A stretch of DNA of 63,966 nt, counting the filler, from Acidimicrobiia bacterium (lineage in GTDB: Bacteria > Actinomycetota > Acidimicrobiia > Spongiisociales > CAZKJJ01), in NCBI GenBank assembly GCA_046759765.1. It is 5 parts of 5 records of this genome, joined end to end, with 100 filler letters (N's around TTAATTAATTAA, not from the genome) between each part and the next. Parts side by side here need not be neighbours in the genome. Positions count along the whole stretch, not along the records: positions 55,728 to 63,966 come from JBHICV010000114.1; 4 more parts are not named here. One strand, given 5' to 3'. A program made the position numbers and the translations under genes. Positions within the stretch are counted from its first letter, which is position 1. The number at the start of each line of letters is the position of its first letter. Of this stretch, positions 3,956 to 63,927 are shown piece after piece. The notes beneath the pieces are model-generated. The model saw nothing but the letters and a program-made list of their open reading frames with translations. It did not search any database and was not told the DNA's origin.

Positions 3956-4761
3956 AGGTCGAGCTCCTTCAGAAAGAGCCGGTATGCGTCGCCGTAGTCG
4001 GATTCGAGACCAAGCAGGGTCGTCCCCTCCAGGTACCCGTTGGGGTTCCCGACGTCCAGGGGTTCCGTCCCGACCACGACTGCCCGACACCTACCCCGCT
4101 GCGCCAGCCAGTCGATCGTGTCAGTGATCTGTACTTCTCCGCCGACACCGGGCTCCAAGGAGGCGAGATGATCAAAGATTTCCGGGGTGAAGAGGTAGCG
4201 GCCAATCAAGCCCAGGTTGGAAGGTGCATTATCCACCCCCGGCTTCTCGACTGCACCTTCTATGTCACATACGCGGTCCGAAATCCATCGTCCAGGCGCA
4301 ACGATGCCATAGCGGCCGAGCCACTCGTCGGTCACCTCCCGCACCGCCACGACAGACCCCTCAGATGCGGCCTCGGCTAGCTGCGGAAGTACGTCCTCGC
4401 CCGCCAGCACGATGTTGTCGGCGAGGAGGGAGAAGAACGGCCGCTCGGCAACCGCATCCCGGGCAGTCAGGATCGCGTCGCCGAGACCTCTCTGTCCTGG
4501 CTGGGTGACCGCTCTTACTTTCACCTCCTCGAGCCCCGGCAGTGCTCCCTCCTCATAGAAGTGGCGCTCGACAAGCTCTCCAACTCCCGGGTCGACCACC
4601 AGGATCACGTCGGTTGCTCCGGCCCGGGCGGCCTCTTCAACCACGTACTGGATAGCGGGGCGGTCGACGACCGGCATCAGGGCTTTCGGCAGGACTCTGG
4701 TGGCAGGCCTCATACGTGTGCCCTTGCCAGCCGCCGGTATGACGGCTACGTCAGCGGCCAT
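3952..4761 (-). CDS. galU: UTP-glucose-1-phosphate uridylyltransferase
   Basis: AVIPAAGKGTRMRPAT..PK, GLGDA, VEKP, GEVQITD. Actinobacterial galU-moeA synteny. Confidence 0.88.
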   Translation of the reverse strand: MAADVAVIPAAGKGTRMRPATRVLPKALMPVVDRPAIQYVVEEAARAGATDVILVVDPGVGELVERHFYEEGALPGLEEVKVRAVTQPGQRGLGDAILTARDAVAERPFFSLLADNIVLAGEDVLPQLAEAASEGSVVAVREVTDEWLGRYGIVAPGRWISDRVCDIEGAVEKPGVDNAPSNLGLIGRYLFTPEIFDHLASLEPGVGGEVQITDTIDWLAQRGRCRAVVVGTEPLDVGNPNGYLEGTTLLGLESDYGDAYRLFLKELDL

Positions 4762-4948
4762 GAGACACAATCTGGGGTTCGGAGCCGCGGCTGCTACCGC
4801 TCCTGACCGAATAGATGTAGACCCCGCGTCTTCGGCTCACCAGCACCGCGAAATCGAGGCTGCCGCGGAGATAAGACACGGCGGCTACCAGCGCATTCAC
4901 CGCCACGGCACAAGTCTATCCCGGGGTCTTGATATCATCTCCCGGTCC

Positions 4949-5242
4949 TTGCCCACCTACGAATATGCCTGTTCGCGGTGCGGTGAACGCCTGGAAGTGT
5001 TCCAGTCTTTCAGCGACAAGCCGCTACGCATTCACGAAGACTGCGGTGGCAGTCTCGAGAAGGTGCTGCATCCCCGCGGCGTGATATTCAAAGGGTCGGG
5101 CTTCTACACAACCGACTCTCGCAGTGCCCTGCCGAGAAAGGCTTCTCCAGCCTCCTCCAAGGGTGATGGCAAAACCAAGAGCTCTTCTGATGCCAAGACC
5201 GGCAGCAGCAAGAAGAAGGACTCATCGGATGGGAGTGGCTGA
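4949..5242 (+). CDS. FmdB-family zinc-ribbon protein
   Basis: PTYEYACSRCG...CGG...FKGSGFYTTD with a Ser/Lys-rich tail. TTG start inferred. Confidence 0.88.
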   Translation: MPTYEYACSRCGERLEVFQSFSDKPLRIHEDCGGSLEKVLHPRGVIFKGSGFYTTDSRSALPRKASPASSKGDGKTKSSSDAKTGSSKKKDSSDGSG

Positions 5243-6026
5243 CGTGATTGGCGTTTTCGGAGGTACTGGCTTCTACGAGTTCCTGGAGGAAGCCCAGGAG
5301 GTGAAAGTGGACACCCCTTACGGCCAGCCCTCAGCTCCGGCCACCGTAGGGCAGATCGGCGAGGTGGACGTGGTTTTCATCCCCCGCCACGGTCGGAGGC
5401 ACGAGTTCCCTCCGCACCTCGTTCCTTACCGCGCTAACGCCTGGGCCTTCCGAGAGCTGGGAGTGGATCGCATAATCGGGCCCTGTGCGGCCGGAAGCCT
5501 CACGCCTTCATACGAACCTGGACACTTCGTAGTAGCCGACCAGCTCGTCGACCGGACGCACGGGAGAGACTCGACCTTCTTCGACGATATCGAAACCAAG
5601 CACATCTCTTTCGCCGACCCTTACTGTCCGGAGCTTCGCCCGCTTGCCATTGCGGCCGCCCGGGAAGCAGGAGCAACAGTCCACGAGCGAGGAACGGACG
5701 TGATCGTGCAGGGGCCACGATTCTCTACTCGGGCCGAGAGCCAGTGGTATGCGCGAGCCGGTTGGGAGTTGATCAACATGACCCAACTACCCGAAGCTTC
5801 GCTGGCCCGCGAGCTGGAGATTTGCTATGTCAACGTGGCAGTCATTACCGACTACGACGTCGGAGTCGAAGGCGAGATCGAGCCGGTGACTCACCGGCAG
5901 GTCATCGAGGGCTTCAAAGCCAGCCTGGGGACGCTCCGGCAGACAATTCGCAACTTCGTCGGGCCCGCCTCGCAGACGCCCCGCAATTGCCCGTGCGCGA
6001 GGTCACTCGCTGACGCCGCTGGATAA
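5235..6026 (+). CDS. mtnP: S-methyl-5'-thioadenosine phosphorylase
   Basis: IGVFGGTG, TPYG, PRHG, GPRFSTRAES, NMT, TDYD. Confidence 0.9.
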   Translation: MADVIGVFGGTGFYEFLEEAQEVKVDTPYGQPSAPATVGQIGEVDVVFIPRHGRRHEFPPHLVPYRANAWAFRELGVDRIIGPCAAGSLTPSYEPGHFVVADQLVDRTHGRDSTFFDDIETKHISFADPYCPELRPLAIAAAREAGATVHERGTDVIVQGPRFSTRAESQWYARAGWELINMTQLPEASLARELEICYVNVAVITDYDVGVEGEIEPVTHRQVIEGFKASLGTLRQTIRNFVGPASQTPRNCPCARSLADAAG

Positions 6027-14357: not shown

Positions 14358-14457
14358 NNNNNNNNNNNNNNNNNNNNNNNNNNNNNNNNNNNNNNNNNNN
14401 NTTAATTAATTAANNNNNNNNNNNNNNNNNNNNNNNNNNNNNNNNNNNNNNNNNNNN
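14358..14457. other. Artificial contig linker
   Basis: N-run, TTAATTAATTAA (stops in all frames), N-run. Confidence 0.99.
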
Positions 14458-28621: not shown

Positions 28622-28721
28622 NNNNNNNNNNNNNNNNNNNNNNNNNNNNNNNNNNNNNNNNNNNNTTAATTAATTAANNNNNNNNNNNNNNNNNNNNNNN
28701 NNNNNNNNNNNNNNNNNNNNN
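28622..28721. other. Artificial contig linker
   Basis: N-run, TTAATTAATTAA, N-run. Confidence 0.99.
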
Positions 28722-42271: not shown

Positions 42272-42371
42272 NNNNNNNNNNNNNNNNNNNNNNNNNNNNN
42301 NNNNNNNNNNNNNNNTTAATTAATTAANNNNNNNNNNNNNNNNNNNNNNNNNNNNNNNNNNNNNNNNNNNN
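42272..42371. other. Artificial contig linker
   Basis: N-run, TTAATTAATTAA, N-run. Confidence 0.99.
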
Positions 42372-53005: not shown

Positions 53006-54391
53006 ATGCCCGTCAAGGCGGTAGTGATGGCTGCCGGGGAGGGCACCCGAATGCGGTCGGATCTGCCGAAGGTCCTCCATCCCGTTGCGGGGCGGCCGCT
53101 GTTGTGGTGGGTGTTGGAGTCGGTCCGGGCATTGGAGCCGGACGAGACGCTGGTCGTAATAGGTCACGGTGCCGAGCACGTGAAGGACAAGCTTGGCGAC
53201 GGAACTCGATGGGTTCTTCAGCCCGAGCAATTAGGAACAGGGCACGCGGTCGAGATCGCGCTGGCCGAATTGGGCGACGTATCCACCGACACCGTCGTCG
53301 TCGTACCCGGTGACGCGCCACTGATGGGAGATCGGCTGCCGGAGTTGCTGGCGCATCACAGCGACACGGGTGCAGCCGTCACCTTTCTGACCGCGGAGCT
53401 CGAGGATCCGTATGGCTACGGACGAATTGTACGCGCCGCCAACGGAGAGGTGGTCGGTGTCGTGGAGGAAACCGATGCGGAGGAGGAGCAGCTGGCCATC
53501 GCGGAAGTCAACGGCGGCATCTATGCCTTCGATGGTGGTCGCCTAGGGGCCGCGTTGGCCACCCTCGACCGTGAAAACGCGCAGAAGGAGTACTACCTGC
53601 CCGACGTGGTCGCGGCTCTGTCACGCGAGGGTTATCGACTCGAGGCGCTGCGTGCTGGTGCCGATGACATTGCTGGCGTGAACAGCCACGATCAGCTCGC
53701 CTTTGCCGATGCCGTTGCCCGAGCTCGAATCAACCGTGCCTGGATGCGGGAAGGCGTCTGGATGCAGGACTCGCAAAGGGTCTATGTCGACGCCGACGTC
53801 CGGCTGTCGCCGGGCGTGCGCCTCTACCCGGGCGTTCACCTGGAGGGGACGACCGAGGTGTCCGAAGATGCCGTGCTCGGTCCGGATGTGTTCGCGTTGG
53901 ACTCGACAATTGGCCAGGGCGCAAGAGTGTGGTACTCGGTGCTGCGCGAGGCGAAGATCGGAGCGGAGGCCCAGGTGGGTCCTTACGCCAGCCTGAGGCC
54001 CGGGACGGTCATCGACGCCGGCGCCAAAGCGGGGACGTTCGTGGAGATGAAGAACGCCCACGTTGGCGAGGGCGCCAAGGTGCCGCACCTTTCCTATATG
54101 GGGGACGCGGAGATCGGTCCGCGGGCCAATATCGGGGCGGGGACGATCACCTGCAACTACGACGGCGTGGCCAAATACGAGACCGTGATCGGGGCCGATG
54201 CCTTCATCGGATCGGACACGATGCTCGTCGCGCCGGTGGAGATCGGGGAGGCGGCCGTGACGGGCGCCGGATCGACCATTACCGAGGATGTCTCGCCCGG
54301 TGCGCTCGCCGTCGAGCGTTCGTCGCAGGATGAAGTTCCCGGCTACGCTGAAAAATTGGAGGAACGACGGAGGCGCAAAGCGGAGGAATAG
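53006..54391 (+). CDS. glmU: Bifunctional UDP-GlcNAc pyrophosphorylase / GlcN-1-P acetyltransferase
   Basis: MAAGEGTRM, QLGTGHAV, EYYL, HLSYMGD, TCNYDG, hexapeptide repeats. Confidence 0.97.
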   Translation: MPVKAVVMAAGEGTRMRSDLPKVLHPVAGRPLLWWVLESVRALEPDETLVVIGHGAEHVKDKLGDGTRWVLQPEQLGTGHAVEIALAELGDVSTDTVVVVPGDAPLMGDRLPELLAHHSDTGAAVTFLTAELEDPYGYGRIVRAANGEVVGVVEETDAEEEQLAIAEVNGGIYAFDGGRLGAALATLDRENAQKEYYLPDVVAALSREGYRLEALRAGADDIAGVNSHDQLAFADAVARARINRAWMREGVWMQDSQRVYVDADVRLSPGVRLYPGVHLEGTTEVSEDAVLGPDVFALDSTIGQGARVWYSVLREAKIGAEAQVGPYASLRPGTVIDAGAKAGTFVEMKNAHVGEGAKVPHLSYMGDAEIGPRANIGAGTITCNYDGVAKYETVIGADAFIGSDTMLVAPVEIGEAAVTGAGSTITEDVSPGALAVERSSQDEVPGYAEKLEERRRRKAEE

Positions 54392-54393
54392 CG

Positions 54394-55365
54394 ATGGACC
54401 AGGTAGGGCACAAGCGGATGATGCTCTTCGCCGGGGGCGCTAACCCGGAGCTGTCCGATGAGGTGGCGGAGCATCTGGGAGTTCCATTGGGAGGTATGGA
54501 GCGCAGCCAGTTCGCCAACGGGGAGATCTACGTCCGGGCTACAGAAAGCGTTCGGGGAGCCGACTGCTTCGTCATCCAGACGCACTCGGATCCGATCAAC
54601 TTCCACATCATGGAGCAGCTGTTGATGATCGACGCCCTCAATCGGGCGTCGGCCAAGCGGATCACCGCGGTTGTACCGTTCTTCGGCTATGCCCGCCAGG
54701 ACAAGAAGGTGCTACCACGCGAGCCCATCTCGGCGCGATTGGTCGGCGACCTCTACATGGCCGCGGGAGCCGACCGAATCGTGTCGGTCGATCTCCACAC
54801 AGGACAGATTCAGGGTTTCATTCCGCGACCCTTCGACCACCTCACGGCACTGCCGATATTCGCCGACTACTTGAATGGCCGACTCGACGGGCCGATCACG
54901 GTGGTGTCGCCAGATGCCGGTGGTGTGAAGCGAGCAGAGAAATATGCCCGCCATCTCGAGGCCTACGTGGCATTCGTCGCCAAGCGCCGGGAGGAAGAGG
55001 AACACAACGTGTCCGAGGCCCTGGCGATGGTCGGAAAGGTGCGTGATCGGCACGCGGTCATCGTCGACGACATGGTCGATACTGCCGGGACATCTGCTAA
55101 CGCCGCCCGACTGCTCAGGGAGAAGGGCGCCAAGAGTGTCCTGCTGATGGCAACCCACGGCGTGTTCTCCGAGCCGTCCATCGACAATCTCAAGAACGCT
55201 CCCGTCGATGAGGTCATTGTCACGAACACGCTTCCCCTTCCGGATGAGGCCGAAGCGCTGGACAAGATCACTGTGCTCTCGGTTGCGGGAATAGTGGCGG
55301 AGGCACTGAAGGCCATCTTCACCGAGACGTCGGTCTCCGAGATCTTCCTCGGCGAAAACGTTTAA
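54394..55365 (+). CDS. prs: Ribose-phosphate diphosphokinase
   Basis: FANGE, YARQDKK, DLH, VSPDAGG, VDDMVDTAGT. Confidence 0.97.
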   Translation: MDQVGHKRMMLFAGGANPELSDEVAEHLGVPLGGMERSQFANGEIYVRATESVRGADCFVIQTHSDPINFHIMEQLLMIDALNRASAKRITAVVPFFGYARQDKKVLPREPISARLVGDLYMAAGADRIVSVDLHTGQIQGFIPRPFDHLTALPIFADYLNGRLDGPITVVSPDAGGVKRAEKYARHLEAYVAFVAKRREEEEHNVSEALAMVGKVRDRHAVIVDDMVDTAGTSANAARLLREKGAKSVLLMATHGVFSEPSIDNLKNAPVDEVIVTNTLPLPDEAEALDKITVLSVAGIVAEALKAIFTETSVSEIFLGENV

Positions 55366-55388
55366 ACCTTTCCTGATCGGTCGACCTC

Positions 55389-55627
55389 ATGTCCCTCTCT
55401 GAAGACGGACCGCTACTTCTTGCTTTAGCGCTGCTCGTAGTGCTGGCCGCCTTTCTCGCCGCCGCCGAAGCGGCGCTCGTACGGATGCCAAAAGTTAGGG
55501 CGGCGTCTCTGGCGGCAGCCGGCGGACGGGCCGAGGCCCGTCTGGCGGCGCTCGTCGATGACCTTCCCCGGGTGCTGAACGCGATTCTTCTCGCGGCCCT
55601 CTTGGCCCAGATCGGCGCAGCCACCGT
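55389..55627 (+). CDS. CNNM/DUF21 hemolysin-family protein, 3' truncated
   Basis: TM followed by AFLAAAEAAL motif. Confidence 0.75.
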
Positions 55628-55727
55628 NNNNNNNNNNNNNNNNNNNNNNNNNNNNNNNNNNNNNNNNNNNNTTAATTAATTAANNNNNNNNNNNNNNNNN
55701 NNNNNNNNNNNNNNNNNNNNNNNNNNN
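55628..55727. other. Artificial contig linker
   Basis: N-run, TTAATTAATTAA, N-run. Confidence 0.99.
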
Positions 55728-55958
55728 GTAAGCCAAGACAATCCGCGTGTCTCCGAGCAGACACCTGCTCTTCAGCACCCCGGCCCTGCGTGCCCGGCCA
55801 TAAGCCACGATTGCCAGCCCGCTCATCACCGCCACCATCAGTGGAGGGGAGAGGAGCCAGGCCAGGAGCGCGACTGTCGTAAACACGCACAACCGCAGTG
55901 GGTCGAAGGGCTTTGTCTCGGGCCGGGCGGTGAAGGCTGCGGGCGGGGCAGATCTCAT
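55728..55958 (-). CDS. Small membrane protein of the radical SAM operon, 3' truncated
   Basis: DPLRLCVFTTVALLAW...SRCLLGD. ATGA overlap with the radical SAM stop. Confidence 0.7.
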
Positions 55959-57523
55959 GTACGGCCTCCAATTGCCACGGGGACGTTTTCGCTATCGATG
56001 CGGGCGACCTCGGCCAGCTTCAGCTCACCCAGAGGTCGCCAGGCCTGCATGGCACAGAACGGGGCGCACTGATGGTCACCGTTCTTGCTGGCGCCAACGT
56101 GCACACAGCACTGCATCAGCCGCTCCTCCAGCATCGTGTTGATGTCCATGAAAGGCTTGATCGTGATCCGCTTGACGCGAGTCGCAACTAACTCGCGGAT
56201 CCGGCGACGCTCCGAGGAGCTGGTCGCCATTTTCAGGAGAGTGCCCATCCCGAGGTCGCAGGCCTCGCAGACGTCGCGAAACAGATCCAGGAGCTTCGGG
56301 TGGGTCAAGGACGTTTGTTCGCTCAGCAGTCCGAGCAGCGACGCCTTGACGAGCTTCTGGAGGTCCTCAGTGAGAGAGTGATCGGCCATCTTGTTGCTGA
56401 CCAGATCGAGGTGCATCTTGAGCCGTTCGTGCCCGATCACTCCGACGAGCGATCTCCAGTCACCGTCATCGGTCTTGAGCATGTAGCCGACGCTGGCGCA
56501 ATGAGGATGGGAGCACGGTAGGGCGGTCAGGTCCTTCCAAGTGACCGTGTCGTTGGTTTGCGGTCCCAGACGGTGCAAAACGCCGGTGTGAGTCAGCCTG
56601 TCGAGGGGGTCAATCGGATTCGAGCGGCCTGATCCGAACTGAGGTTGGATGCAGATCCCGCCGACGTAATCCGTTTCGAGGCCTTTCATGACCACCGCTC
56701 CGATCTCGTCGTCGTTGACACCGAGCGCGGCGGTCATAGTGAGCGTGGTGAATATTCCGGCATCGCTCAGGCGGTTTATCGCTCGTTCCTTCAGAGACCG
56801 CAGGTCGGCGTTTCGGTGGTGGAGATAGGTCTCCTTGCGGAATCCGTCGAACTGGAGATACACCTCCACGCGATCCTTGTGTCGGGCGAGCAAATCGAGC
56901 AACTCGTCGTTGCGGGCGATGAGCACCCCGTTGCTGTTGACCAAGATGCGCCCGATCTCACGCTGGGTGACGAGCCGGAGGATTTCGGCGAAGCGCGGGT
57001 GGATAGTCGGCTCGCCGCCGGAGAGCATCAAGACATCGATACGACCGCCCTCCCGAGCCAGCCTCGTATCGATGTTGGCGAGGACATCGTCAACTTGGGC
57101 CACTCCGGTCAGCTCGGGCATCGAATCGGCGTAGCACGTCGGGCACCGGAGGTTGCAGTTCTCGTTGATGTCCTCGAGCAGGATGCAAGTGTGCTGGGTC
57201 TGCATCTCGCCTAGGCCCTCGAGATAAGCCGCCGGTATGGGCGAGTAGTTGCCGTCCGTGTCAGGAATATGGACTTTCGTGGGCGCAGTCCATTCCTCCA
57301 GGTAGGAGAGGATCTCGGGATCCTCGTCATAGAGAGTGACGACCTTGCCGTGCTTCGGGCATCCCCGCACGAGCCAGACTCGACCCTCGGCCTCTGACAG
57401 GTAGCCGGCCAGCCGTTCGACCTCCTCGAGGGGAGCACTGGGATTCTCGTCATGGCAGAGAGGGCAGAAGGAGGTCACGTAGCGATGGATGCGATCCTCC
57501 CTGACCGGCATACCCAGGGTCAT
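55955..57523 (-). CDS. Radical SAM enzyme, Tes/GDGT-MAS (MJ0619)-like family
   Basis: CNLRCPTC, SGGEPT, YLQFDG, N-terminal CPLC...CPKH, PCSHPHC, C-terminal FMD...CCVH...PFC. Confidence 0.85.
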   Translation of the reverse strand: MTLGMPVREDRIHRYVTSFCPLCHDENPSAPLEEVERLAGYLSEAEGRVWLVRGCPKHGKVVTLYDEDPEILSYLEEWTAPTKVHIPDTDGNYSPIPAAYLEGLGEMQTQHTCILLEDINENCNLRCPTCYADSMPELTGVAQVDDVLANIDTRLAREGGRIDVLMLSGGEPTIHPRFAEILRLVTQREIGRILVNSNGVLIARNDELLDLLARHKDRVEVYLQFDGFRKETYLHHRNADLRSLKERAINRLSDAGIFTTLTMTAALGVNDDEIGAVVMKGLETDYVGGICIQPQFGSGRSNPIDPLDRLTHTGVLHRLGPQTNDTVTWKDLTALPCSHPHCASVGYMLKTDDGDWRSLVGVIGHERLKMHLDLVSNKMADHSLTEDLQKLVKASLLGLLSEQTSLTHPKLLDLFRDVCEACDLGMGTLLKMATSSSERRRIRELVATRVKRITIKPFMDINTMLEERLMQCCVHVGASKNGDHQCAPFCAMQAWRPLGELKLAEVARIDSENVPVAIGGRT

Positions 57524-57822
57524 ATCTGACCTGGGATCAAAACCACCAGCAGCGTGCAGTTCCCCATCGAGAGGATCGTGAGCAGGGCATAGCCGACCGC
57601 GATGCCGATCCCGAGACTCCGGTTGCCGCCGCGGAAGGCCAAGACGACTACCGCAGCAGTCGCGGCCAGCAGCAGCAGCGCCAACGGCGCGGCAACCCAG
57701 TCGGGCGCGTCAAGGCCGAGCGCGGTGAAGAACACCACCCAAAAGAAGACCGTGATTCCGAGCACCGAGACTCCCAGACCCAGCATCAGCTGACCCCAGT
57801 TGATCTGGCGTGCTTCCGTCAT
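57520..57822 (-). CDS. Small 3-TM membrane protein ending in a GxC motif
   Basis: 100 aa, ends LTILSMGNCTLLVVLIPGQI. Overlaps both neighbours by 4 bp. Confidence 0.7.
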   Translation of the reverse strand: MTEARQINWGQLMLGLGVSVLGITVFFWVVFFTALGLDAPDWVAAPLALLLLAATAAVVVLAFRGGNRSLGIGIAVGYALLTILSMGNCTLLVVLIPGQI

Positions 57823-58607
57823 GTGGCTACTTGCCTAGTTCGGTAGGCACCCTGAGACCACTGGCGCAGGAAGTACACCCCGACGAAAGGGACCGTGACC
57901 AATAGGAAGAGCTGGGAGCCTGATAGGCCCAGCCAGAACTCCGGGTTCCCTCGGACGAACTCGACTACGAATCGGAAGAGCCCATAGGACAGCAGGAAGA
58001 TCTTCAGCAGCTCACCCTGGACGGGGATGCGCCCTCGCAGAACCAGCAAACCGCCGAACGCCAGTGCGAGAAATGCGATCTCGTAGAGGAAGGAAGGATG
58101 CAGCGGGATACCTGACACACACTGGGGGCAGTTAGCAATCTGGGAGCCGATCGCGGGGTCCAGGGTGATGCCCCAAGGCAGCGAGGTGGGCGTTCCGACC
58201 TGCTCAGTCAAGAAGCATCCGATGCGGCCGATAGCCAGTCCGAGAGCGACGGCCGGTGCGAACAGGTCCCCGGTCCTCTCGCGGTAGCCGACGATTCGCT
58301 TGGTCACGATCGCTCCGAAGTAGGCCCCCGCCAAGCCTCCAAGCACACTGCGACCGCCCTGGAGCCAGAGGCCTTGAAGAGTGGGTTCCGGGGCCGTGGC
58401 CAGGTATTGCCAGCCCGTTGAGAGCTTGCCAAAGACGGCTCCTCCCAGGAGGGCGCCGATCGCGACCCAGAGCGTCTTCTCAGTTAGCTTCCGACGGCGA
58501 CGCGCCTCCCACAGGTAAAAGGCGAAAGCCGCCGCCACGCCCAGCAGCAGGAATGCGTCGTGCGTCGGGATGGCCAGTTCCCCGAGGGGTAGCAACGTGG
58601 GCCTCAT
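57819..58607 (-). CDS. Prolipoprotein diacylglyceryl transferase (Lgt)-family paralog
   Basis: GGRSVLGG, IGRIGCF, LPWG, HPSFLYE, YGLFRFVVEFVR. Confidence 0.85.
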   Translation of the reverse strand: MRPTLLPLGELAIPTHDAFLLLGVAAAFAFYLWEARRRRKLTEKTLWVAIGALLGGAVFGKLSTGWQYLATAPEPTLQGLWLQGGRSVLGGLAGAYFGAIVTKRIVGYRERTGDLFAPAVALGLAIGRIGCFLTEQVGTPTSLPWGITLDPAIGSQIANCPQCVSGIPLHPSFLYEIAFLALAFGGLLVLRGRIPVQGELLKIFLLSYGLFRFVVEFVRGNPEFWLGLSGSQLFLLVTVPFVGVYFLRQWSQGAYRTRQVAT

Positions 58608-58726
58608 CAAACGTTGAGCAGCAGGGCGCAGGTGCCACCGAGCAGAACCAGCACACCGATGGCGATGAGGACCACCATGCCGACCCGTCTCCAGCCAGAC
58701 GGAGATTCGGGTTCGCGCTCGCCCAT
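58607..58726 (-). CDS. Unannotated 39-aa hydrophobic peptide MGEREPESPSGWRRVGMVVLIAIGVLVLLGGTCALLLNV
   Basis: Translated by hand (below the ORF-track cutoff). ATG preceded by GGAAGG; its TGA overlaps the Lgt-paralog ATG (TGATG). Confidence 0.7.
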   Translation of the reverse strand: MGEREPESPSGWRRVGMVVLIAIGVLVLLGGTCALLLNV

Positions 58727-58791
58727 GGACCTTCCGCTATTCGGCCGGAGCGTATTCGAGCGCTAGCCCGTCTCCAACGACCGTCGCGGGG

Positions 58792-60444
58792 TCAGACTTT
58801 GACGGCGGTTCCTTTACGGACGATCTCTTCGATCTCCAGAGGCCGCACCGGCTTGCCGAACAGGTAGCCCTGGGCGATGTCACAACCCAGCTCCGAAAGG
58901 ATCTCGTGCTGTTCGGGAGTCTCGACTCCTTCTGCGATCACCTTTAATGAGAGACTGTGCGCAAGCCGAATAACGGCAGTGGGAATGGCCATGGAATCGG
59001 GCTCGCGCTCGAGGTCCGTAATGAAGGAGCGATCGATCTTCAGGTAGTCGATCGGGAACTGCTTCAGATAGCTCAGCGAGGAGTAGCCCGTACCGAAGTC
59101 GTCGATCGATATGCGCACTCCCATCTTCTTGAGTCTCTCCAATGTCCGCCGAGTCATTTCGGTGTCTTCGATCAAGGTGCCCTCTGTCAGCTCGAGCTCA
59201 ATCAGCTTGGGATCGACGCCGCTGTCTCGGAGTGCCCTTCCCACGGTTTCGACCAGGTCGCCGTGCCGGAACTGTCTCGCGGCGACGTTCACCGAGACCG
59301 AGATGTTCGGGAGCGACGAGTCCATCCACTCGCGGGCCTGGTGGCAGGCTTCGGTTAACACCCACTCGCCCAGTGGGAGGATCAGATCCGTGTCCTCCGC
59401 GATCGGAATGAACTGGCCGGGCATAACGGCACCCATTTCGGGATGATCCCACCGGAGTAACGCTTCCACACCGGTGACCTGCCCCGTCTCGAGCCAGAGC
59501 TTGGGCTGATAAGCCAGCCAGAGCTGGTCGTCACGGGCCAGCGCCGCGCGCAGGCTGGTGAGGAGCTCAATCCGCGCTGACGTCTTGGCTCTCAGCTCTG
59601 CAGTGACGAACTGGTAGGTGTTCTTGCCGGCGTCTTTGGCCGAGTACATAGCGAGGTCGGCGTCGCGTAGGAGCCCGTCGATGCTCTCGCCGTCCAGGGG
59701 GTAAACGACGATCCCGATGCTTCCGGTAACGAAGAGCTTGCGGTCGAGCAGCAGGAAAGGCTTCTCGAGCGCGCTGAGCACCTTCTCGGCCACCTGGCCG
59801 GCGTCCTCCGGGCGTGTCCCGCCCTCGAGGATGATCATGAACTCGTCGCCACCAAGGCGGGCAACGGTGTCGCTCTCCCGCACCGAGTCCTCGAGTCGGC
59901 CTGCCACCTGCCGGAGTAGTTGGTCGCCGATGTGGTGGCCGAGCTGGTCGTTGACAGCTTTGAAGTCGTCGAGATCGATGAACATCACGCTGACCAGCGT
60001 TCCGTCTCTCCGAGCTCTCACGACTGCATGTTCGAGGCGGTCCCTGAGCAACACCCGGTTGGCGAGACCGGTCAGAGGATCGAACTGGGCCAGGTAGTTG
60101 ATCTCTTCCCCGTCCTGTTCGCGCTCGGCTTCGTGTTCCTCCTCCCGCTCGGCCCGTCCCTGCTTGATCCGCCTCGCCAAAGGTCGAAAGAGGAAGATTC
60201 CTTCGACGAGCGCCACGAGCAGAATTCCCTGCAAGAGCAATGGCTGGATATCAGCGTCCTGGCGGGAAAGGGCGCGAGCGACCAGGTAGGTCGAGCTGAT
60301 GGCAAAGACAGCGATCAGGCCGAGGCCGAGAAGATACCGAGCTATGAGTGGACGCGTGGGTGCGTCCCTGGGCTCATTCTTCGTGACGTCTTCATGGTTT
60401 TCCCAGGGATCTCCGCCGTCCTTGCTGTGCCGCTGATCCGGCAT
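58792..60444 (-). CDS. GGDEF-EAL diguanylate cyclase/phosphodiesterase
   Basis: DPLTGLANR, RLGGDEF, EALLRW, DDFGTGYSSL, AEGVE, QGY. Two N-terminal TMs. Confidence 0.95.
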   Translation of the reverse strand: MPDQRHSKDGGDPWENHEDVTKNEPRDAPTRPLIARYLLGLGLIAVFAISSTYLVARALSRQDADIQPLLLQGILLVALVEGIFLFRPLARRIKQGRAEREEEHEAEREQDGEEINYLAQFDPLTGLANRVLLRDRLEHAVVRARRDGTLVSVMFIDLDDFKAVNDQLGHHIGDQLLRQVAGRLEDSVRESDTVARLGGDEFMIILEGGTRPEDAGQVAEKVLSALEKPFLLLDRKLFVTGSIGIVVYPLDGESIDGLLRDADLAMYSAKDAGKNTYQFVTAELRAKTSARIELLTSLRAALARDDQLWLAYQPKLWLETGQVTGVEALLRWDHPEMGAVMPGQFIPIAEDTDLILPLGEWVLTEACHQAREWMDSSLPNISVSVNVAARQFRHGDLVETVGRALRDSGVDPKLIELELTEGTLIEDTEMTRRTLERLKKMGVRISIDDFGTGYSSLSYLKQFPIDYLKIDRSFITDLEREPDSMAIPTAVIRLAHSLSLKVIAEGVETPEQHEILSELGCDIAQGYLFGKPVRPLEIEEIVRKGTAVKV

Positions 60445-60492
60445 CGGCTATCACCTTGAAGCGCTAAGGAGATATCGGCGCTTCTTGGCTGC

Positions 60493-61413
60493 CTATTGAG
60501 TGAGAGGCTCCTGTCGATCGGTGTCGACTGTCACGTTGAATACGTCCGGTCGGAAGTAGTGCCCGGCAGGATCGAAGTTCTGCCGCTCCGCAAGGACCGC
60601 ATCGACGTCCAGGTCGGCGTAAACGATTGTCTCATCACCTTTGACCGGGCCCGCGATGCCCTTTCCGTCCGGTCCGACGATGCAAGTACCTCCGGTCATG
60701 AATCGATCCGCGGTGCCGAGTTTGTCCTTCAAAGGGAAGCCGCTGGGGATGTCGGAAGCGCTCAATACTCCGCCCGTAGAGATCACGTAAACCCTGCCCT
60801 CTAGAGCTATGAAGCGGGTGATGTCGCGTGTCAACCAGGGCGAGCCCGGCCACGTGGCGATGTGGACCTGTTCACCTTGTGCGTACAGGCTGTGTCGAGC
60901 CAGCGGCATCCAGTTCTCCCAGCAGTTGAGACCGCCGACTCGAAAGCCTCCCCAATCGTGGACTGCCAACCCGTGCCCATCACCCGACGACCAAACCAGC
61001 CGCTCCTCATAGGTGGGACGGAGCTTTCTGTGGATCGACACCACGCCCCGCTCGGGGTGTACGGCCGCCAGGGACGCGTACACCGATCCTCCCGAAGCTG
61101 ATAGCTCCACAAATCCCAGATAGGTGAAGACACCAAGCTCGGCCGCGGCCGCCACGACCGCCTCGATCTCGGGACCGTCAGGGGCAACGGCGCCGCGTAC
61201 GTAGGCGGCGTAGGCGGCCTTCTGCTCCGGGTCGTTGAACCTGGCGCCTCCAGTGCGCGATAACCAGAACGGATACCCGGCGAGAAAAGTCTCCGGAAAC
61301 ACGCACAGTTCGGCGCCGCCCGAGGAAGCTTCCTTCATGAGGGTGAGGACCTTGTCTGTTGTCCTCTGCGGATCGCAGAAGACCGGAGCCGCTTGGATGC
61401 CGGCGACTCTCAT
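60493..61413 (-). CDS. Nitrilase (carbon-nitrogen hydrolase)
   Basis: FPETF, HRKLRPT, LNCWENW catalytic triad, DPAGHY.RPD. Confidence 0.92.
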   Translation of the reverse strand: MRVAGIQAAPVFCDPQRTTDKVLTLMKEASSGGAELCVFPETFLAGYPFWLSRTGGARFNDPEQKAAYAAYVRGAVAPDGPEIEAVVAAAAELGVFTYLGFVELSASGGSVYASLAAVHPERGVVSIHRKLRPTYEERLVWSSGDGHGLAVHDWGGFRVGGLNCWENWMPLARHSLYAQGEQVHIATWPGSPWLTRDITRFIALEGRVYVISTGGVLSASDIPSGFPLKDKLGTADRFMTGGTCIVGPDGKGIAGPVKGDETIVYADLDVDAVLAERQNFDPAGHYFRPDVFNVTVDTDRQEPLTQ

Positions 61414-61991
61414 CTGTTCCTCCATTCGAGCGGGTCGCCTGACCCGGCGGCCTCCGACACCTCCGGGTCGACTTGGATACCGAAGCCGTCGGCCAGTCTC
61501 GTGAGATGGTTGAAGATCCCAACAATGTGGCCCACTTCGAGACAAGCCTCATCGTCAAATCCCAGCTGGCGTAGCTGGGCCCAGTCGGCCTCGACCATCC
61601 CGGTCGGCTCGGCGGACATCTTCTCAGCCACCGTGCACAGGGCCACTTCACGTTCGCTGAGCGGTAGATCTCGCCACCGACGCTCCTTGATCGCTTCGAC
61701 GAGTCCCGGATCACCGGCTTCGGCACGCAGAAACTCTGCGTGAGACTCAGTTCAGTAGAAGCACTCCTGGGCGGCGGAGGCTACGGCGGCCACCATCTCC
61801 CGTTCGCTGCGGGTCAGCGCACCTTCTCGAAACATGATCTCGAGGTAAAGCTCGCCAAAGCGAGGACCGATGCGGGGATGGGCGTCGATCAGCTTGGACA
61901 TCGCCGGTATCCGACCGAAGTCGTAAACCGACCGGTCGCCTCTTGCTCTGACCTCTTCCTCGCTGGGGAGGTCGAGCCACGCTTCGCGCAT
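61410..61991 (-). CDS. AhpD/CMD-like peroxidase-related selenoprotein (in-frame UGA at 61752-61754, motif CFYU)
   Basis: ORFs 61752-61991 and 61410-61646 share a frame and are separated only by one TGA. Readthrough gives LTRSEREMVA..ECFYUTESH...FNHLTRLADGFG, 193 aa. Confidence 0.85.
61724..61742 (-). promoter_or_regulatory. Candidate bacterial SECIS hairpin
   Basis: CACGCAGA-GTT-TCTGCGTG, a perfect 8-bp stem starting 10 nt after the UGA, with a G in the loop. Confidence 0.65.
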
Positions 61992-62009
61992 GTATCTTTC
62001 TCCGTTTGC

Positions 62010-62058
62010 GTTCCGGTCAACCTGAGCCGCACTTTTCGCGGCTTAGATTGACACGAAA
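62010..62058. repeat. 49-bp palindromic element (GTCAA/TTGAC type)
   Basis: Arms GTTCCGGTCAAC / ATTGACACGAAA, inner stem CTGAGCCGC/GCGGCTTAG. Right arm matches that of 14234-14282 at 11 of 12 positions. Confidence 0.68.
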
Positions 62059-62059
62059 G

Positions 62060-62518
62060 TCAGTCGAGGAGCATGGCGTCGGTCTCCCGGAGACGCTGCG
62101 ATAGCCCCTGCAGGATCTTTCGCGCCAGACCGGGTACGTCGTCGAGCAGCTGACTGAAGTCGCTCCGATGCATCACCAGCAGCACCGAGTCCTCTTCGAC
62201 AGTCACCGTTGCCGAGCGAGGCTGGCCGTCGAGCAACGACATCTCGCCCACGAAGTCACCGTCGCCCCTGCTGGCAAGCTTCTGCCCGTCTCTGGTGATC
62301 GTGGCGCTGCCCGAGACGATGATGAACATCTCGTTGCCCAGATCCCCCTGCTCAGCCAGCACCGAGCCGGCCTCCTTCTTGATCTCATCCGTGTGACGGG
62401 CGACCTCGGTGAGCTGCTTCGGTGACAGATTGGCGAAGAGGGGCACTTGCTTCAGCAGATCGGTCTTGTCGGAATGACGCCTGAGCGCTGCCATGGAATC
62501 TCCTCCGTGGCTCGCCAT
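62060..62518 (-). CDS. Stand-alone cyclic-nucleotide-binding domain protein
   Basis: VPLFANL, GDFVGEMSLLDGQPRSATV. Confidence 0.9.
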   Translation of the reverse strand: MASHGGDSMAALRRHSDKTDLLKQVPLFANLSPKQLTEVARHTDEIKKEAGSVLAEQGDLGNEMFIIVSGSATITRDGQKLASRGDGDFVGEMSLLDGQPRSATVTVEEDSVLLVMHRSDFSQLLDDVPGLARKILQGLSQRLRETDAMLLD

Positions 62519-62554
62519 ATTCTATGTTGGCTACTCGAGGGGCGAGCTCCGGAG

Positions 62555-63091
62555 TCATCTGCACTCAGCGAACCAGTACATCGTTTCGGCGTTGAGGCCG
62601 AGCAGTGCGGTGCCCTCGTAGTGCTGGCCTTGGTAGTCGAAGGCCACGGGAACTTCGTAAGTTTGCGCCGCCGTGCTGCCGGTGGCGGTTTCGAAGGCGC
62701 GGATGATCGGACCGATCGCCTCGCCGGTCTGCTCGTAGTTCTCGAGCTGGAGGATCTCCCGGGTCACAAAGGCGCGGCACCGATCAGTCCCGTAGGCGTC
62801 GATTACTACGGGGTGCAGGCGCTCCATTAGGAAGCTCACGTCTTGTGCGTCGATCGCCACGCGAAACGAAACGACGAACGAAGAGGCCGGGTCTTGAGCT
62901 GTCGTGGCGGCAGACGCCGGCGCGGTCGAAAGAGCCGTGGGAGGGCCCTCGTCGATAGGACTGTCACTGGGGACTAGGAGTACGACTGCTAACGCAACGC
63001 CAAGCGCACCCCCGATCGCAGCCAGCGGCCACCACAGTCTCTTGCCCGTAGGGAGCCCCGTGTTCTCTCGATGGTCTGGAATGCCGAGAAT
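62555..63091 (-). CDS. Hypothetical membrane-anchored protein, start unresolved
   Basis: Frame is open from 63091 and encodes a TM (WWPLAAIGGALGVALAVVLLV) and a Pro/Thr linker upstream of the tracked ORF. Confidence 0.45.
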   Translation of the reverse strand: MLGIPDHRENTGLPTGKRLWWPLAAIGGALGVALAVVLLVPSDSPIDEGPPTALSTAPASAATTAQDPASSFVVSFRVAIDAQDVSFLMERLHPVVIDAYGTDRCRAFVTREILQLENYEQTGEAIGPIIRAFETATGSTAAQTYEVPVAFDYQGQHYEGTALLGLNAETMYWFAECR

Positions 63092-63135
63092 CTACTTTCG
63101 CTGTCATCGGTATCCTGCACCAAGCGGAAGGGAGA

Positions 63136-63927
63136 TTGGTGAAGTACCCACACGGAATGTTCTCATGGACGGATCTCGGCGTTCCCGACGGCGGAGCCGC
63201 CAAAGCGTTCTACGGGGAGCTCTTTGGCTGGCAGTTCAAGGATCTACCGGGACGAGGCGATCTGCCGTACTCGATGGCGATGGTCGGCTCCCACGACGTG
63301 GCAGCGGTGTACCAGCAGGGTCCACAGCAAGCCGGCACGCCACCGGCATGGATGAGCTACATCAACGTCGAGGATGCCGACAAAGTCGCGACACGCGCCT
63401 CGGAGCTGGGCGGGTCAGTAGTGGCTGAGCCGTTCGAGGCCGAGGGCGCGGGACGTTTGGCAGTCATCTCCGATCCGACGGGTGCCGTCGTCTCGTTGTG
63501 GCAGCCGGTCCAGCACGAAGGAGCCGGAATTTTCAACGTTCATGGAGCTATGACCTGGAACGAGCTGGCCACCAGAGACGGCGAAACGGCAAAATCGTTT
63601 TTCGGCGATCTGCTTGGTTGGACGTTCCATACAACGGAGACCCCTCGGCTCGTCTACCACGAGATTCGGGTGGACGGTCGCAGCAACGGAGGCATCCTCG
63701 AGATGGACGAGCGCTGGTCTCCGGAAGCGCCGGCCCGATGGATGACGTACTTCGCAGTCGACGACTGCGACGAGACTACCGAGAAGGTGGTTGAGCTAGA
63801 GGGCACCGTGGCGGTCCCACCCACCGACATCCCGGCGGGGCGCTACGCGATCGTCAAGGACCAGCAAGGCGCGGCGTTCACGATATTTGCCTTCCCCGAA
63901 GGACAAGGCGGAACCCAGCCCGTGTGA
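63136..63927 (+). CDS. Two-domain VOC/glyoxalase protein (CFP32-like)
   Basis: Duplicated W.(D/E)L...FF/YG.L.GW...W..Y..V.D...GR.A...D..GA. Confidence 0.9.
   Translation: MVKYPHGMFSWTDLGVPDGGAAKAFYGELFGWQFKDLPGRGDLPYSMAMVGSHDVAAVYQQGPQQAGTPPAWMSYINVEDADKVATRASELGGSVVAEPFEAEGAGRLAVISDPTGAVVSLWQPVQHEGAGIFNVHGAMTWNELATRDGETAKSFFGDLLGWTFHTTETPRLVYHEIRVDGRSNGGILEMDERWSPEAPARWMTYFAVDDCDETTEKVVELEGTVAVPPTDIPAGRYAIVKDQQGAAFTIFAFPEGQGGTQPV

Follow-up and report, generated by a model that had tools for sequence, protein, structure and literature searches.

A conserved gene cassette combines an Lgt paralog and a GDGT-MAS-like radical SAM enzyme with small membrane proteins ending in a G-x-C module

The window analysed in this study, a stretch of 63,966 nucleotides from an Acidimicrobiia bacterium (GCA_046759765.1), carries at the start of its last contig (55728-63966) a cassette of five open reading frames (ORFs), which encode a paralog of the protein-lipidating enzyme Lgt, an enzyme of the radical S-adenosylmethionine (SAM) type related to the archaeal lipid-coupling enzyme GDGT-MAS (Tes; MJ0619) and three small membrane proteins. 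Comparison with related loci revealed that these genes belong to a real, widespread and unnamed system of four parts: the Lgt paralog, the radical SAM enzyme, small proteins ending in a transmembrane (TM) helix, G-x-C and a short tail (GxC proteins), and a membrane protein with two invariant cysteines (two-Cys protein). All five ORFs lie on the minus strand with overlapping stop and start codons (55728-58726), as described by an original prediction made from this DNA, whose observation was confirmed (Table 1). Three of the four gene borders are ATGA overlaps, including those at each end of the gene for the 100-aa protein, and the 39-aa peptide pep39 overlaps the Lgt paralog in TGATG, or in TTGA if the TTG start is used; the ATG at 58607, 3 nt past this TTG, is the likelier start of the paralog. 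The sequence GGAAGG is located 5 nt ahead of the pep39 ATG, and the GC content of third codon positions (GC3) amounts to 0.75-0.81 across the five genes and to 0.77 in the adjacent GGDEF-EAL gene. The window is a pseudomolecule, in which five contigs are joined by four N44-TTAATTAATTAA-N44 linkers with stops in six frames. Adjacency across these linkers is artificial, and glmU, prs and CNNM (53006-55627) are consequently not operon neighbours of the cassette; likewise, the fifth ORF is incomplete because a linker occupies the positions directly next to it.

Table 1. Coordinates of the cassette genes, their motifs, the adjacent gene and the contig joints in the window.
Feature	Position	Strand	Remarks
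pep39, 39-aa peptide	58607-58726	minus	charged N-terminus with RR, one TM helix, GTC, tail ALLLNV; GC3 0.75
G-T-C motif of pep39, Cys33	58628-58636	minus	translation = GTC
Lgt paralog, 263 aa from TTG start	57819-58610	minus	Pfam LGT; Y26H/N146C class
100-aa membrane protein	57520-57822	minus	three apolar segments, basic loop RGGNRS, GNC, tail TLLVVLIPGQI
G-N-C motif of 100-aa protein, Cys89	57556-57564	minus	translation = GNC
Radical SAM enzyme, 522 aa	55955-57523	minus	GDGT-MAS/Tes/TrsS superfamily
Two-Cys, two-TM membrane protein, 5' part (77 codons)	55728-55958	minus	motifs FDPLRLC, RSxCxLGDTR
GGDEF-EAL protein with N-terminal membrane region	58792-60444	minus	end lies 65 bp upstream of pep39
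Linkers	14358-14457, 28622-28721, 42272-42371, 55628-55727		artificial contig joints

Related loci were fetched with the radical SAM protein, using one genome per species; 151 genomes matched and the best 80 loci were kept, to which the counts of loci in the following refer. According to tblastn, the Lgt paralog is located beside the radical SAM gene in 73 of these 80 loci. Of the loci lacking it, six (L004, L012, L013, L014, L023, and L042) are truncated at a contig end on that side where it would be expected, and L020 contains no Lgt paralog, an absence which is not accounted for by a contig end. A metagenome-assembled genome (MAG) of the Oscillochloridaceae (L017) features only a 51-aa Lgt fragment (5735-5887), which may be a pseudogene or an assembly error, next to an intact GxC ORF (4752-5303) and an intact radical SAM gene. 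Clustering of the neighbouring genes by BLAST on GC3-filtered, non-overlapping ORFs yielded, besides the four parts, no cluster common to more than 14 of the 80 loci; next in frequency were unrelated genes, namely one for an aminotransferase-like protein of 445 aa (14 loci) and others for regulators or transporters (5-7 loci). The order of the genes differs between hosts and reads GxC-Lgt-rSAM-2Cys (rSAM, radical SAM gene; 2Cys, two-Cys gene) in Acidimicrobiia and Micromonosporaceae, Lgt-GxC-rSAM-2Cys in Chloroflexota, Blastocatellia, Mycobacteriaceae and Nakamurella, rSAM-2Cys-Lgt-GxC with one to three GxC genes in 32 of 36 Microbacteriaceae loci as well as in Micrococcaceae and Demequinaceae, and GxC-Lgt-GxC-rSAM-2Cys in the window. 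Constant through all orders are the pairings of Lgt with GxC and of the radical SAM enzyme with the two-Cys protein. Overall, the cassette occurs in Acidimicrobiia and other Actinomycetota, Chloroflexota, Acidobacteriota (Blastocatellia) and Gemmatimonadota, with cultivable hosts in the genera Microbacterium, Agromyces, Arthrobacter, Mycolicibacterium, and Hamadaea.

The two small proteins to either side of the Lgt paralog terminate in a TM helix, G-x-C and a short tail, with the C-terminus ...LLGGTCALLLNV in pep39 and ...LSMGNCTLLVVLIPGQI in the 100-aa protein, and their translations agree with the GTC and GNC motifs noticed before. As sequence families, neither of them is conserved: tblastn found pep39 in one and the 100-aa protein in ten of the 80 loci, in both cases weakly, pep39 matched no family of Pfam or NCBIfam, and a phmmer search with the 100-aa protein gave only nine proteins at E ≤ 0.001 among 1.84 billion representatives. 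Their conservation is confined to the C-terminal module. All ORFs with 30 aa or more on the two strands of the 80 loci were scanned with a strict pattern, in which G-x-C is found 2-16 residues ahead of the end and follows on 18 residues that are uncharged and for the most part apolar. This pattern was present in 34 of the 397 ORFs abutting the Lgt paralog vs. 13 of 7848 others; all of these 13 are located on the cassette strand inside cassettes and evaded the adjacency rule by over-extended starts, and not a single strict match was found on the opposite strand of the 80 loci. A relaxed pattern, which was applied to the cassette strand only, allowed a tail of 2-18 residues and imposed the Gly at -2 and the Cys, retrieved a TM-GxC-tail ORF within the cassette in 71 of 81 loci (the 80 and the window) and one match outside of cassettes (L060, 2170-2373). 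Of the ten loci without a relaxed match, five are cut by a contig end (L004, L014, L042, L047, and L060), two have a deviating ORF described below (L009 and L057), and L020, L021, and L040 showed no candidate in the vicinity. Conserved GxC ORFs beside Lgt/radical SAM pairs, on which the original prediction had made itself dependent, hence do exist, and 65 of the 79 ORFs directly abut the Lgt paralog, either starting at its stop (53) or ending at its start (12). The remaining ones are additional tandem copies downstream (7), ORFs at loci where Lgt falls off the contig (4), ORFs located farther upstream (2) and one over-extended ORF. Counterparts of pep39 with 39-50 aa, ending at the start of the Lgt paralog, are present in L002, L003, L005-L008, and L056.

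The module itself is uniform. In all 78 unique C-termini, the Cys is followed by a tail of 5-12 residues, which contains Asp, Glu, Lys or Arg in just seven cases, and in 61 of them the last Lys or Arg is found 20-21 residues ahead of the Cys. Position -1 is occupied by Pro in 40, position +2 by Gly or Ala in 57 and position +3 by Leu in 49 of the 78. The proteins range from 39 to about 290 aa and have unrelated, often proline-rich N-termini; because minimal forms of 39-50 aa exist, the C-terminal module would be their functional unit. The number of apolar segments is odd (one or three) and basic residues precede the last one, so that the Cys is predicted by the positive-inside rule to face the outside, the same side as the active site of Lgt, which is located at the outer face (Mao 2016, PMC4728403; accessible part). 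Judged from these features, the GxC module is laid out like a lipoprotein signal peptide, with a basic anchor, about 20 apolar residues and a Cys. A short tail is not universal, since the closest full homologue of the 100-aa protein (L009, 5612-6004) contains S-A-G-Q-C followed by 46 extra residues including a helix and a charged end. In Microbacterium sp. 8M (L057, 8903-10885), the Lgt paralog is followed by a 660-aa ORF with a proline-rich N-terminus, which continues as a multi-TM, sensor-like protein without a GxC end and looks like a deletion or fusion.

Several further features of the GxC proteins were observed. Two to three tandem TM-GxC-tail genes follow the Lgt paralog in L035, L050, L062, L068, L069 (8388-9859), and L075, and these are of two types, a short one with a single TM helix (...GAKGVLIGCG...LGPCIGLNTY) and one with three TM helices. 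At least one further Cys is present in the last 130 residues of 44 of the 78 proteins, the other 34, both window proteins included, having none; it often occurs as (I/V)GCG at the start of the first TM helix or as RGC 18-22 residues ahead of the motif Cys, a position corresponding to the cytoplasmic end of the same helix. GxC proteins of Chloroflexota and Blastocatellia begin with a small helical domain (L011, 5147-5857; L015, 2798-3280; L010, 5456-5971), which is characterized by the motif Y(L/I)xxxRxx(F/Y)(T/D)xxALRxxLxxxGVxxxxVDxAxxQ(V/L)Y, is duplicated in L011 and corresponds to no Pfam family at cut-off. Pfam and NCBIfam searches with 20 plus 9 GxC or two-Cys proteins gave no match at cut-off, and a search of the ESM Atlas retrieved only clusters of "hypothetical proteins".

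The 263-aa Lgt paralog matches Pfam LGT (PF01790; E = 1.7e-31, residues 4-240), scores 72.2 bits vs. a cut-off of 118.9 with TIGR00544 and stays far under the cut-offs of the remaining lgt models; the paralog of Microbacterium likewise falls below the lgt equivalog cut-off. The sole PDB match of its AlphaFold2 (AF2) model (predicted local distance difference test, pLDDT, 92.3) is E. coli Lgt 5azb, with a query TM-score (TMq) of 0.61 and a probability of 1.00. The designation as an atypical Lgt therefore holds at the family level. Using HMMER and, with the K-12 protein as target, hhalign (probability 98.4), the positions of E. coli Lgt were assigned in an alignment of 72 paralogs. Invariant in the family, in paralog numbering, are H17, R129, C132, E136, H171, E177, R213, E217, and R220, and the equivalents of G142, R143, G145, E202, Y235, R239, E243, and R246 of E. 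coli Lgt are invariant or nearly so. In the same 72 paralogs, Y26 is replaced by His and N146 by Cys, both invariantly, H103 is replaced by Leu, and the signature motif carries an insertion of seven residues. A loss of R239 was considered and ruled out, as the Arg of the PRHPS/PLHPS pair corresponds to R195 and the equivalent of R239 is R213. The accessible text of a recent preprint lists a 13-residue Lgt motif (Y26, H103, G104, G142, R143, G145, N146, E151, G154, Y235, R239, E243, and R246; bioRxiv 10.1101/2025.03.27.645668), of which the paralog has nine residues (G104, G142, R143, G145, G154, Y235, R239, E243, and R246). E151 aligns with Q137 of the paralog, alongside the invariant E136.

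The structural work on E. coli Lgt, as far as its accessible text goes, helps to interpret these positions (Mao 2016, PMC4728403). The enzyme is inactive when Y26, H103, R143, E151, Y235, R239, E243 or R246 is mutated; the donor lipid is hydrogen-bonded by Y26 at its sn-2 ester, the catalytic pocket is made up of R143 and R239, and the HGGL motif was proposed to bind the lipobox peptide. The paralog thus retains the transfer machinery, with altered positions at the donor and acceptor contacts. It shares with canonical Lgt the fold, the Arg/Glu/Tyr network and the glycines G142 and G145 and, as likely acceptor, a Cys that sits where an apolar helix, preceded by basic residues, ends on the outer side. 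It differs in its score, in the substitutions and insertion mentioned above and in its linkage to a radical SAM gene, and the motif of its candidate acceptors is a C-terminal G-x-C, with Pro as the commonest residue at -1 and only the short tail behind it. A paralog of this kind is already in print: MSMEG_5408 of Mycobacterium smegmatis is reported to carry Y26H and N146C and was assigned a "presumed low Lgt activity" (bioRxiv 10.1101/2025.03.27.645668; mBio 2026, PMC13251419). It is likened to the present family by these two substitutions; in the accessible parts of both sources it is treated as a low-activity Lgt and no radical SAM neighbour is mentioned. M. smegmatis was neither among the best 80 of the 151 loci nor among the 120 radical SAM proteins listed. 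MSMEG_5406, a "hypothetical protein" two genes from MSMEG_5408, was reported in the accessible text to be 9-fold down under zinc chelation by TPEN (PMC7174638), and it may or may not belong to a cassette.

For the 522-aa radical SAM enzyme, Pfam searches gave Radical_SAM (E = 1.7e-20) and the "HMPTM" (MJ0619-type) zinc ribbon (6.7e-10). With the NCBIfam models, it scores 186.5 bits vs. 490 for TrsS (NF045646) and 141.9 vs. 450 for Tes, and the Microbacterium protein reaches 190.4 bits with TrsS; since the scores are below both cut-offs, the enzyme is, by sequence, a member of neither family. Its best solved relative in sequence is GDGT-MAS 7tol (E = 4.6e-31). A fold search was conducted with a model of the L009 protein (76% identical to that of the window; pLDDT 72.5) and retrieved 7tol over the full length (TMq 0.67; target TM-score, TMt, 0.70; E = 3e-25), with the runner-up at 0.32. 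Zinc ribbon, sequence and fold consequently agree with the earlier label "Tes/MJ0619-like" at the family level. The CX3CX2C motif (C123/C127/C130) and a rubredoxin-type C20/C23/C55/H58 site are invariant or nearly so in 75 sequences, and the C-terminal cluster cysteines of GDGT-MAS are retained in the family. According to the accessible text on GDGT-MAS, this enzyme has a rubredoxin-type CX2C...CX2H site, CX3CX2C and the ligands C73/C77/C80 plus a His for the cluster [Fe4S4]N (Lloyd 2022, PMC9433317). Among the proteins here, the N-terminal auxiliary-cluster region contains no conserved Cys column in the 75 sequences except C113. In a database search with 7998 scored proteins, 3077 relatives had E ≤ 0.001; the top 119, not counting the protein itself, are 65-77% identical. 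The family is frequent in Mycolicibacterium, and the 120 proteins listed include Mycolicibacterium fortuitum, septicum, peregrinum, mageritense, wolinskyi and goodii.

Compared with Tes/GDGT-MAS (MJ0619; 7tol, 7tom), the enzyme thus shares the full-length, four-domain fold, the zinc/rubredoxin site, CX3CX2C and the C-terminal cluster cysteines. In contrast, its Tes score is low, the [Fe4S4]N cysteines as well as Met439 and Tyr459 are missing, the hosts of the cassette are bacteria with ester lipids, and for Tes no link to an Lgt paralog and small Cys proteins has been described. TrsS, reportedly described by Haft and Tolstoy in 2025, is the best-scoring curated family for the protein, which nevertheless stays far under its 490-bit cut-off. 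None of the small cassette proteins matched any NCBIfam model, including those of the Tso partner families.

The original prediction had listed the fifth gene as a Cys-bearing membrane protein. This is correct for the part of the gene which is present, and it undervalued a protein that is cut by the contig end and turned out to be the most conserved small protein of the system. Full-length relatives comprise about 100 aa. The protein was found in 72 of the 80 loci (tblastn and profile search), where its gene invariably follows the radical SAM gene and in many cases overlaps it in ATGA. Its core of about 65 residues consists of FDPLRLC, an apolar stretch of 28 residues containing a near-invariant Pro, the strongly basic loop ARRxGLxRSxCxLGDTR and a second helix; wherever an alignment row has a residue at these positions, C28 (66 of 66) and C70 (71 of 71) are conserved. 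The median net charge is +6 for the loop and -1 for the N-tail. Mean column identity amounts to 45%, and sequences from different phyla are 50-67% identical. No Pfam or NCBIfam family matches the protein, and a profile search in the database gave 1361 proteins at E ≤ 0.001 among 8000 scored; of the 120 relatives listed, all are "hypothetical" except for one "uncharacterized membrane protein" and one "DUF4190 domain-containing" protein. Co-folding of the L009 radical SAM enzyme with its two-Cys partner, each with its own alignment, resulted in "weak support" with a score of 0.52 (runs 0.54, 0.52, and 0.00), while the best of three controls scored 0.00; the partner reached a pLDDT of 66 or more, and 10% or more of the contacts were common to the runs. 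The mark applied is reached by 116 of 157 solved complexes and by 2 of 215 mismatches, and scores of 0.60 or less comprise 18 of the 157 solved complexes and both passing mismatches. Based on this model, the two-Cys protein probably docks the radical SAM enzyme on the membrane.

The cassette is conserved across several phyla while no function is known for it, which makes it the probable sign of a so far undescribed modification of membrane proteins or lipids. The reading we prefer, with a probability of about 40%, is a dedicated lipidation of the GxC cysteine by the Lgt paralog combined with a radical tailoring of the lipid by the radical SAM enzyme. GxC proteins would then mimic a lipoprotein signal peptide with their C-terminus, i.e., at the wrong end of the protein, and the paralog would move a glyceryl-lipid group from a phospholipid onto the thiol; S-lipidation of this Cys by the paralog is the simplest interpretation of the signal-peptide layout together with the kept Lgt pocket. 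As its fold is that of GDGT-MAS, the radical SAM enzyme would be expected to modify a lipid tail, starting with the abstraction of a hydrogen at an unactivated carbon; this tail could belong to the donor lipid prior to its transfer or to the anchor once it is in place. Subsequently, a C-C or C-S bond could be formed via the C-terminal [4Fe-4S] cluster, like in GDGT-MAS, which is described in the accessible text as taking a hydrogen from the end of a lipid tail and working via a C-S(cluster) intermediate before C-C coupling (Lloyd 2022, PMC9433317). The two-Cys protein would hold the enzyme at the membrane, and the product would be a small membrane protein with a tail-modified lipid, which may be cross-linked, macrocyclic or membrane-spanning. 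The sequences show the parts with their conservation, neighbourhood, motif geometry and family or fold, whereas it is inferred that the Cys acts as acceptor, what the donor is, on which substrate the radical SAM enzyme works and what it yields, and that the two-Cys protein docks this enzyme; the original interpretation as a lipid-peptide modification system is, as far as sequences can tell, partly supported. A more specific version, which we regard as possible, although doubtful, is that a reverse, C-terminal lipobox is lipidated by an enzyme of the Lgt class and that a Tes-fold radical SAM enzyme, held by the two-Cys protein, joins the lipid tail via C-C or C-S bonds to another lipid tail or to a protein Cys.

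Several observations weigh against a lipidation of the GxC proteins with radical tailoring of the lipid. On the side of the Lgt paralog, Y26 and H103, which do not tolerate mutation in E. coli Lgt, are both substituted, and the activity of MSMEG_5408, a member of the Y26H/N146C class, is presumed to be low in the accessible literature. The G-x-C motif is not a canonical lipobox, defined in the accessible source as [LVI][ASTVI][GAS]C at the close of an N-terminal signal peptide (PMC12462473): Gly, Ala or Ser is rare at -1, where Pro prevails, and the residues after the Cys are too few for a "mature protein". No GxC gene was found near the cassettes of L020, L021, and L040. In the radical SAM family, the [Fe4S4]N ligands are absent, with C73/C77/C80 aligning to A/E/G of ...AAYLEGLGEMQTQHTC (HMMER, 7tol), and Met439 and Tyr459, reported in the accessible text as completely conserved among 1000 archaeal homologues (Lloyd 2022, PMC9433317), are replaced by an invariant Lys (K457) and an invariant Val (V477), respectively. 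Because of these missing residues, the reaction may differ from a tail-tail coupling; the GDGT-MAS variants M439A and Y459F/L remain active according to the same text, so that Met439 and Tyr459 mark the family rather than the chemistry. Moreover, the place of action of the radical SAM enzyme must be the cytoplasm, but lipidation is proposed for a Cys at the outer face. In five loci whose cassettes have full flanks (L022, L031, L034, L048, and L056; the hosts are Pseudonocardiaceae, Mycolicibacterium sp. CBMA 247, a Micromonosporaceae MAG and an Acidimicrobiia MAG), the two-Cys protein is missing from the vicinity and is either dispensable or encoded elsewhere, and its co-folding score falls into a weak class that is more often wrong than right unless the interaction is likely beforehand. 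To our knowledge, membrane-spanning lipids have not been described from Microbacterium or mycobacteria.

An alternative option, which appears rather unlikely to us, would be a lipid pathway without any protein acceptor, in which the radical SAM enzyme and the Lgt paralog jointly produce or remodel an unusual glycerolipid (e.g., tail-coupled, macrocyclic or sulfur-bearing), with the small proteins as structural subunits, scaffolds or regulators of both enzymes instead of substrates. The sole relative of the radical SAM enzyme with a solved structure acts purely on lipids, the invariable change of Y26 at the donor site and N146 in the cavity would fit a different lipid, and the two-Cys protein is conserved like a subunit and co-folds weakly with the radical SAM enzyme; such a pathway leaves unexplained, however, why otherwise variable GxC proteins maintain a fixed depth of 20-21 residues between basic anchor and Cys, why they occur in one to three tandem copies with unrelated N-termini and why the catalytic network of Lgt for thiol transfer is retained. 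Conversely, the peptide itself could be the substrate, as in a pathway for RiPPs (peptides that are synthesized on ribosomes and modified post-translationally), where the GxC proteins would serve as precursors, the radical SAM enzyme would introduce a thioether at the Cys or a C-C cross-link in the tail, Lgt would add the lipid and a short lipidated peptide would be released as signal or antibiotic. Small size, tandem copies, a conserved recognition part with a variable short tail and the tight coupling to the enzymes are reminiscent of such systems, and there are weak core matches of the radical SAM enzyme to the peptide maturases AlbA (1.1e-11; 43.9 vs. 850 bits) and SkfB (5.6e-07; 28.7 vs. 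300 bits) and to PDB 6efn. These matches cover only the common radical SAM core and, as far as AlbA and SkfB are concerned, are far below the cut-offs, and the fold over the full length is that of the lipid enzyme. Near the cassettes of the 80 loci, neither a SPASM domain or RiPP recognition element (RRE; no search was aimed at it) nor a protease or exporter is conserved, and the frequent Pro at -1 argues against cleavage by signal peptidase II, given the -1 preference of this peptidase. A RiPP-like lipopeptide is, in our opinion, unlikely.

It is even less probable that the paralog represents a redundant, weak second Lgt for ordinary lipoproteins with functionally unrelated neighbours. In line with this idea, M. 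smegmatis can dispense with either lgt homologue and still shows some lipoprotein labelling when MSMEG_3222 is missing, as stated in the accessible text (bioRxiv 10.1101/2025.01.07.631728), and the paralog retains most of the 13-residue motif. The linkage to the radical SAM gene in most loci, across phyla and in three gene orders, and the GxC ORFs abutting the paralog with overlapping stop and start codons weigh against it, and the invariant Y26H and N146C substitutions rather speak for a constrained new function than for decay. High-GC genomes do yield many spurious ORFs, and GxC ends could in principle arise accidentally in hydrophobic ORFs of GC-rich DNA or by erroneous gene calling. The ORF scans of the related loci refuted such a chance origin, which we consider extremely improbable: the opposite strand gave nothing, the few strict matches not adjacent to Lgt were all inside cassettes, a single match on the same strand was found outside of them even with the relaxed pattern, and the ORFs feature a coding-type GC3, a fixed tail length and a fixed distance to the anchor.

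A dedicated lipidation system would also resemble the known C-terminal sorting systems, i.e., LPXTG/sortase, PEP-CTERM/exosortase, PGF-CTERM/archaeosortase and MYXO-CTERM, in which a motif and a TM helix form a C-terminal module. Common to both are a C-terminal module shared by unrelated proteins and a dedicated membrane enzyme encoded in the neighbourhood; in the cassette, however, the order is reversed (basic residues, TM helix, motif, short tail) and the enzyme is a homologue of Lgt and not a transpeptidase. Exosortase, sortase or rhombosortase families were not found in the cassette neighbourhoods. Literature searches revealed no description of an Lgt paralog combined with a radical SAM enzyme and GxC proteins, in agreement with the original statement that no characterized example exists; this statement has to be amended for the paralog class itself, which was in print as MSMEG_5408. 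In the accessible text of a 2026 review on lipid-modifying radical SAM enzymes, the terms "lipoprotein" and "Actinobacteria" do not occur, and bacterial Tes homologues are discussed, in the accessible parts of the respective studies, only as candidates for making membrane-spanning lipids (Zeng 2022; Sahonero-Canavesi 2022). The cassette consequently consists of known families in an undescribed combination, a protein-lipidating and a lipid-coupling enzyme.

So far, Lgt has counted as a housekeeping enzyme with one purpose and as an antibiotic target, and its second copies have been dismissed as weak duplicates. Here, one class of such copies (Y26H/N146C) possesses its own acceptor-like proteins and a radical SAM partner in at least four phyla. 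If the proposed lipidation with radical tailoring is true, it would represent a new protein-lipid modification. It would furthermore provide a function for a large bacterial branch of the Tes/MJ0619 superfamily, which is debated with regard to the sources of bacterial membrane-spanning lipids, and account for a long-standing oddity of the M. smegmatis genome. The more specific version with a reverse lipobox, if correct, would be a novel type of post-translational modification and the first link of lipoprotein biogenesis with archaeal-type radical lipid coupling, and it would imply protein-bound macrocyclic or membrane-spanning lipids in ordinary aerobic bacteria like Microbacterium and fast-growing mycobacteria.

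In the surroundings of the cassette, Rfam gave no match at E ≤ 1 within 55728-60600, and a scan of the operon region for regulatory sites detected no promoter-like site and one terminator-like site vs. 1.4 expected. The adjacent GGDEF-EAL gene is found near the cassette in 3 of the 80 loci (tblastn) and is probably unrelated to it. The genes of 60493-63927, none of which recurs near other cassettes, encode a CN-hydrolase (nitrilase-type), a fragment of the CMD family, a cNMP-binding protein and a two-domain glyoxalase-type protein.

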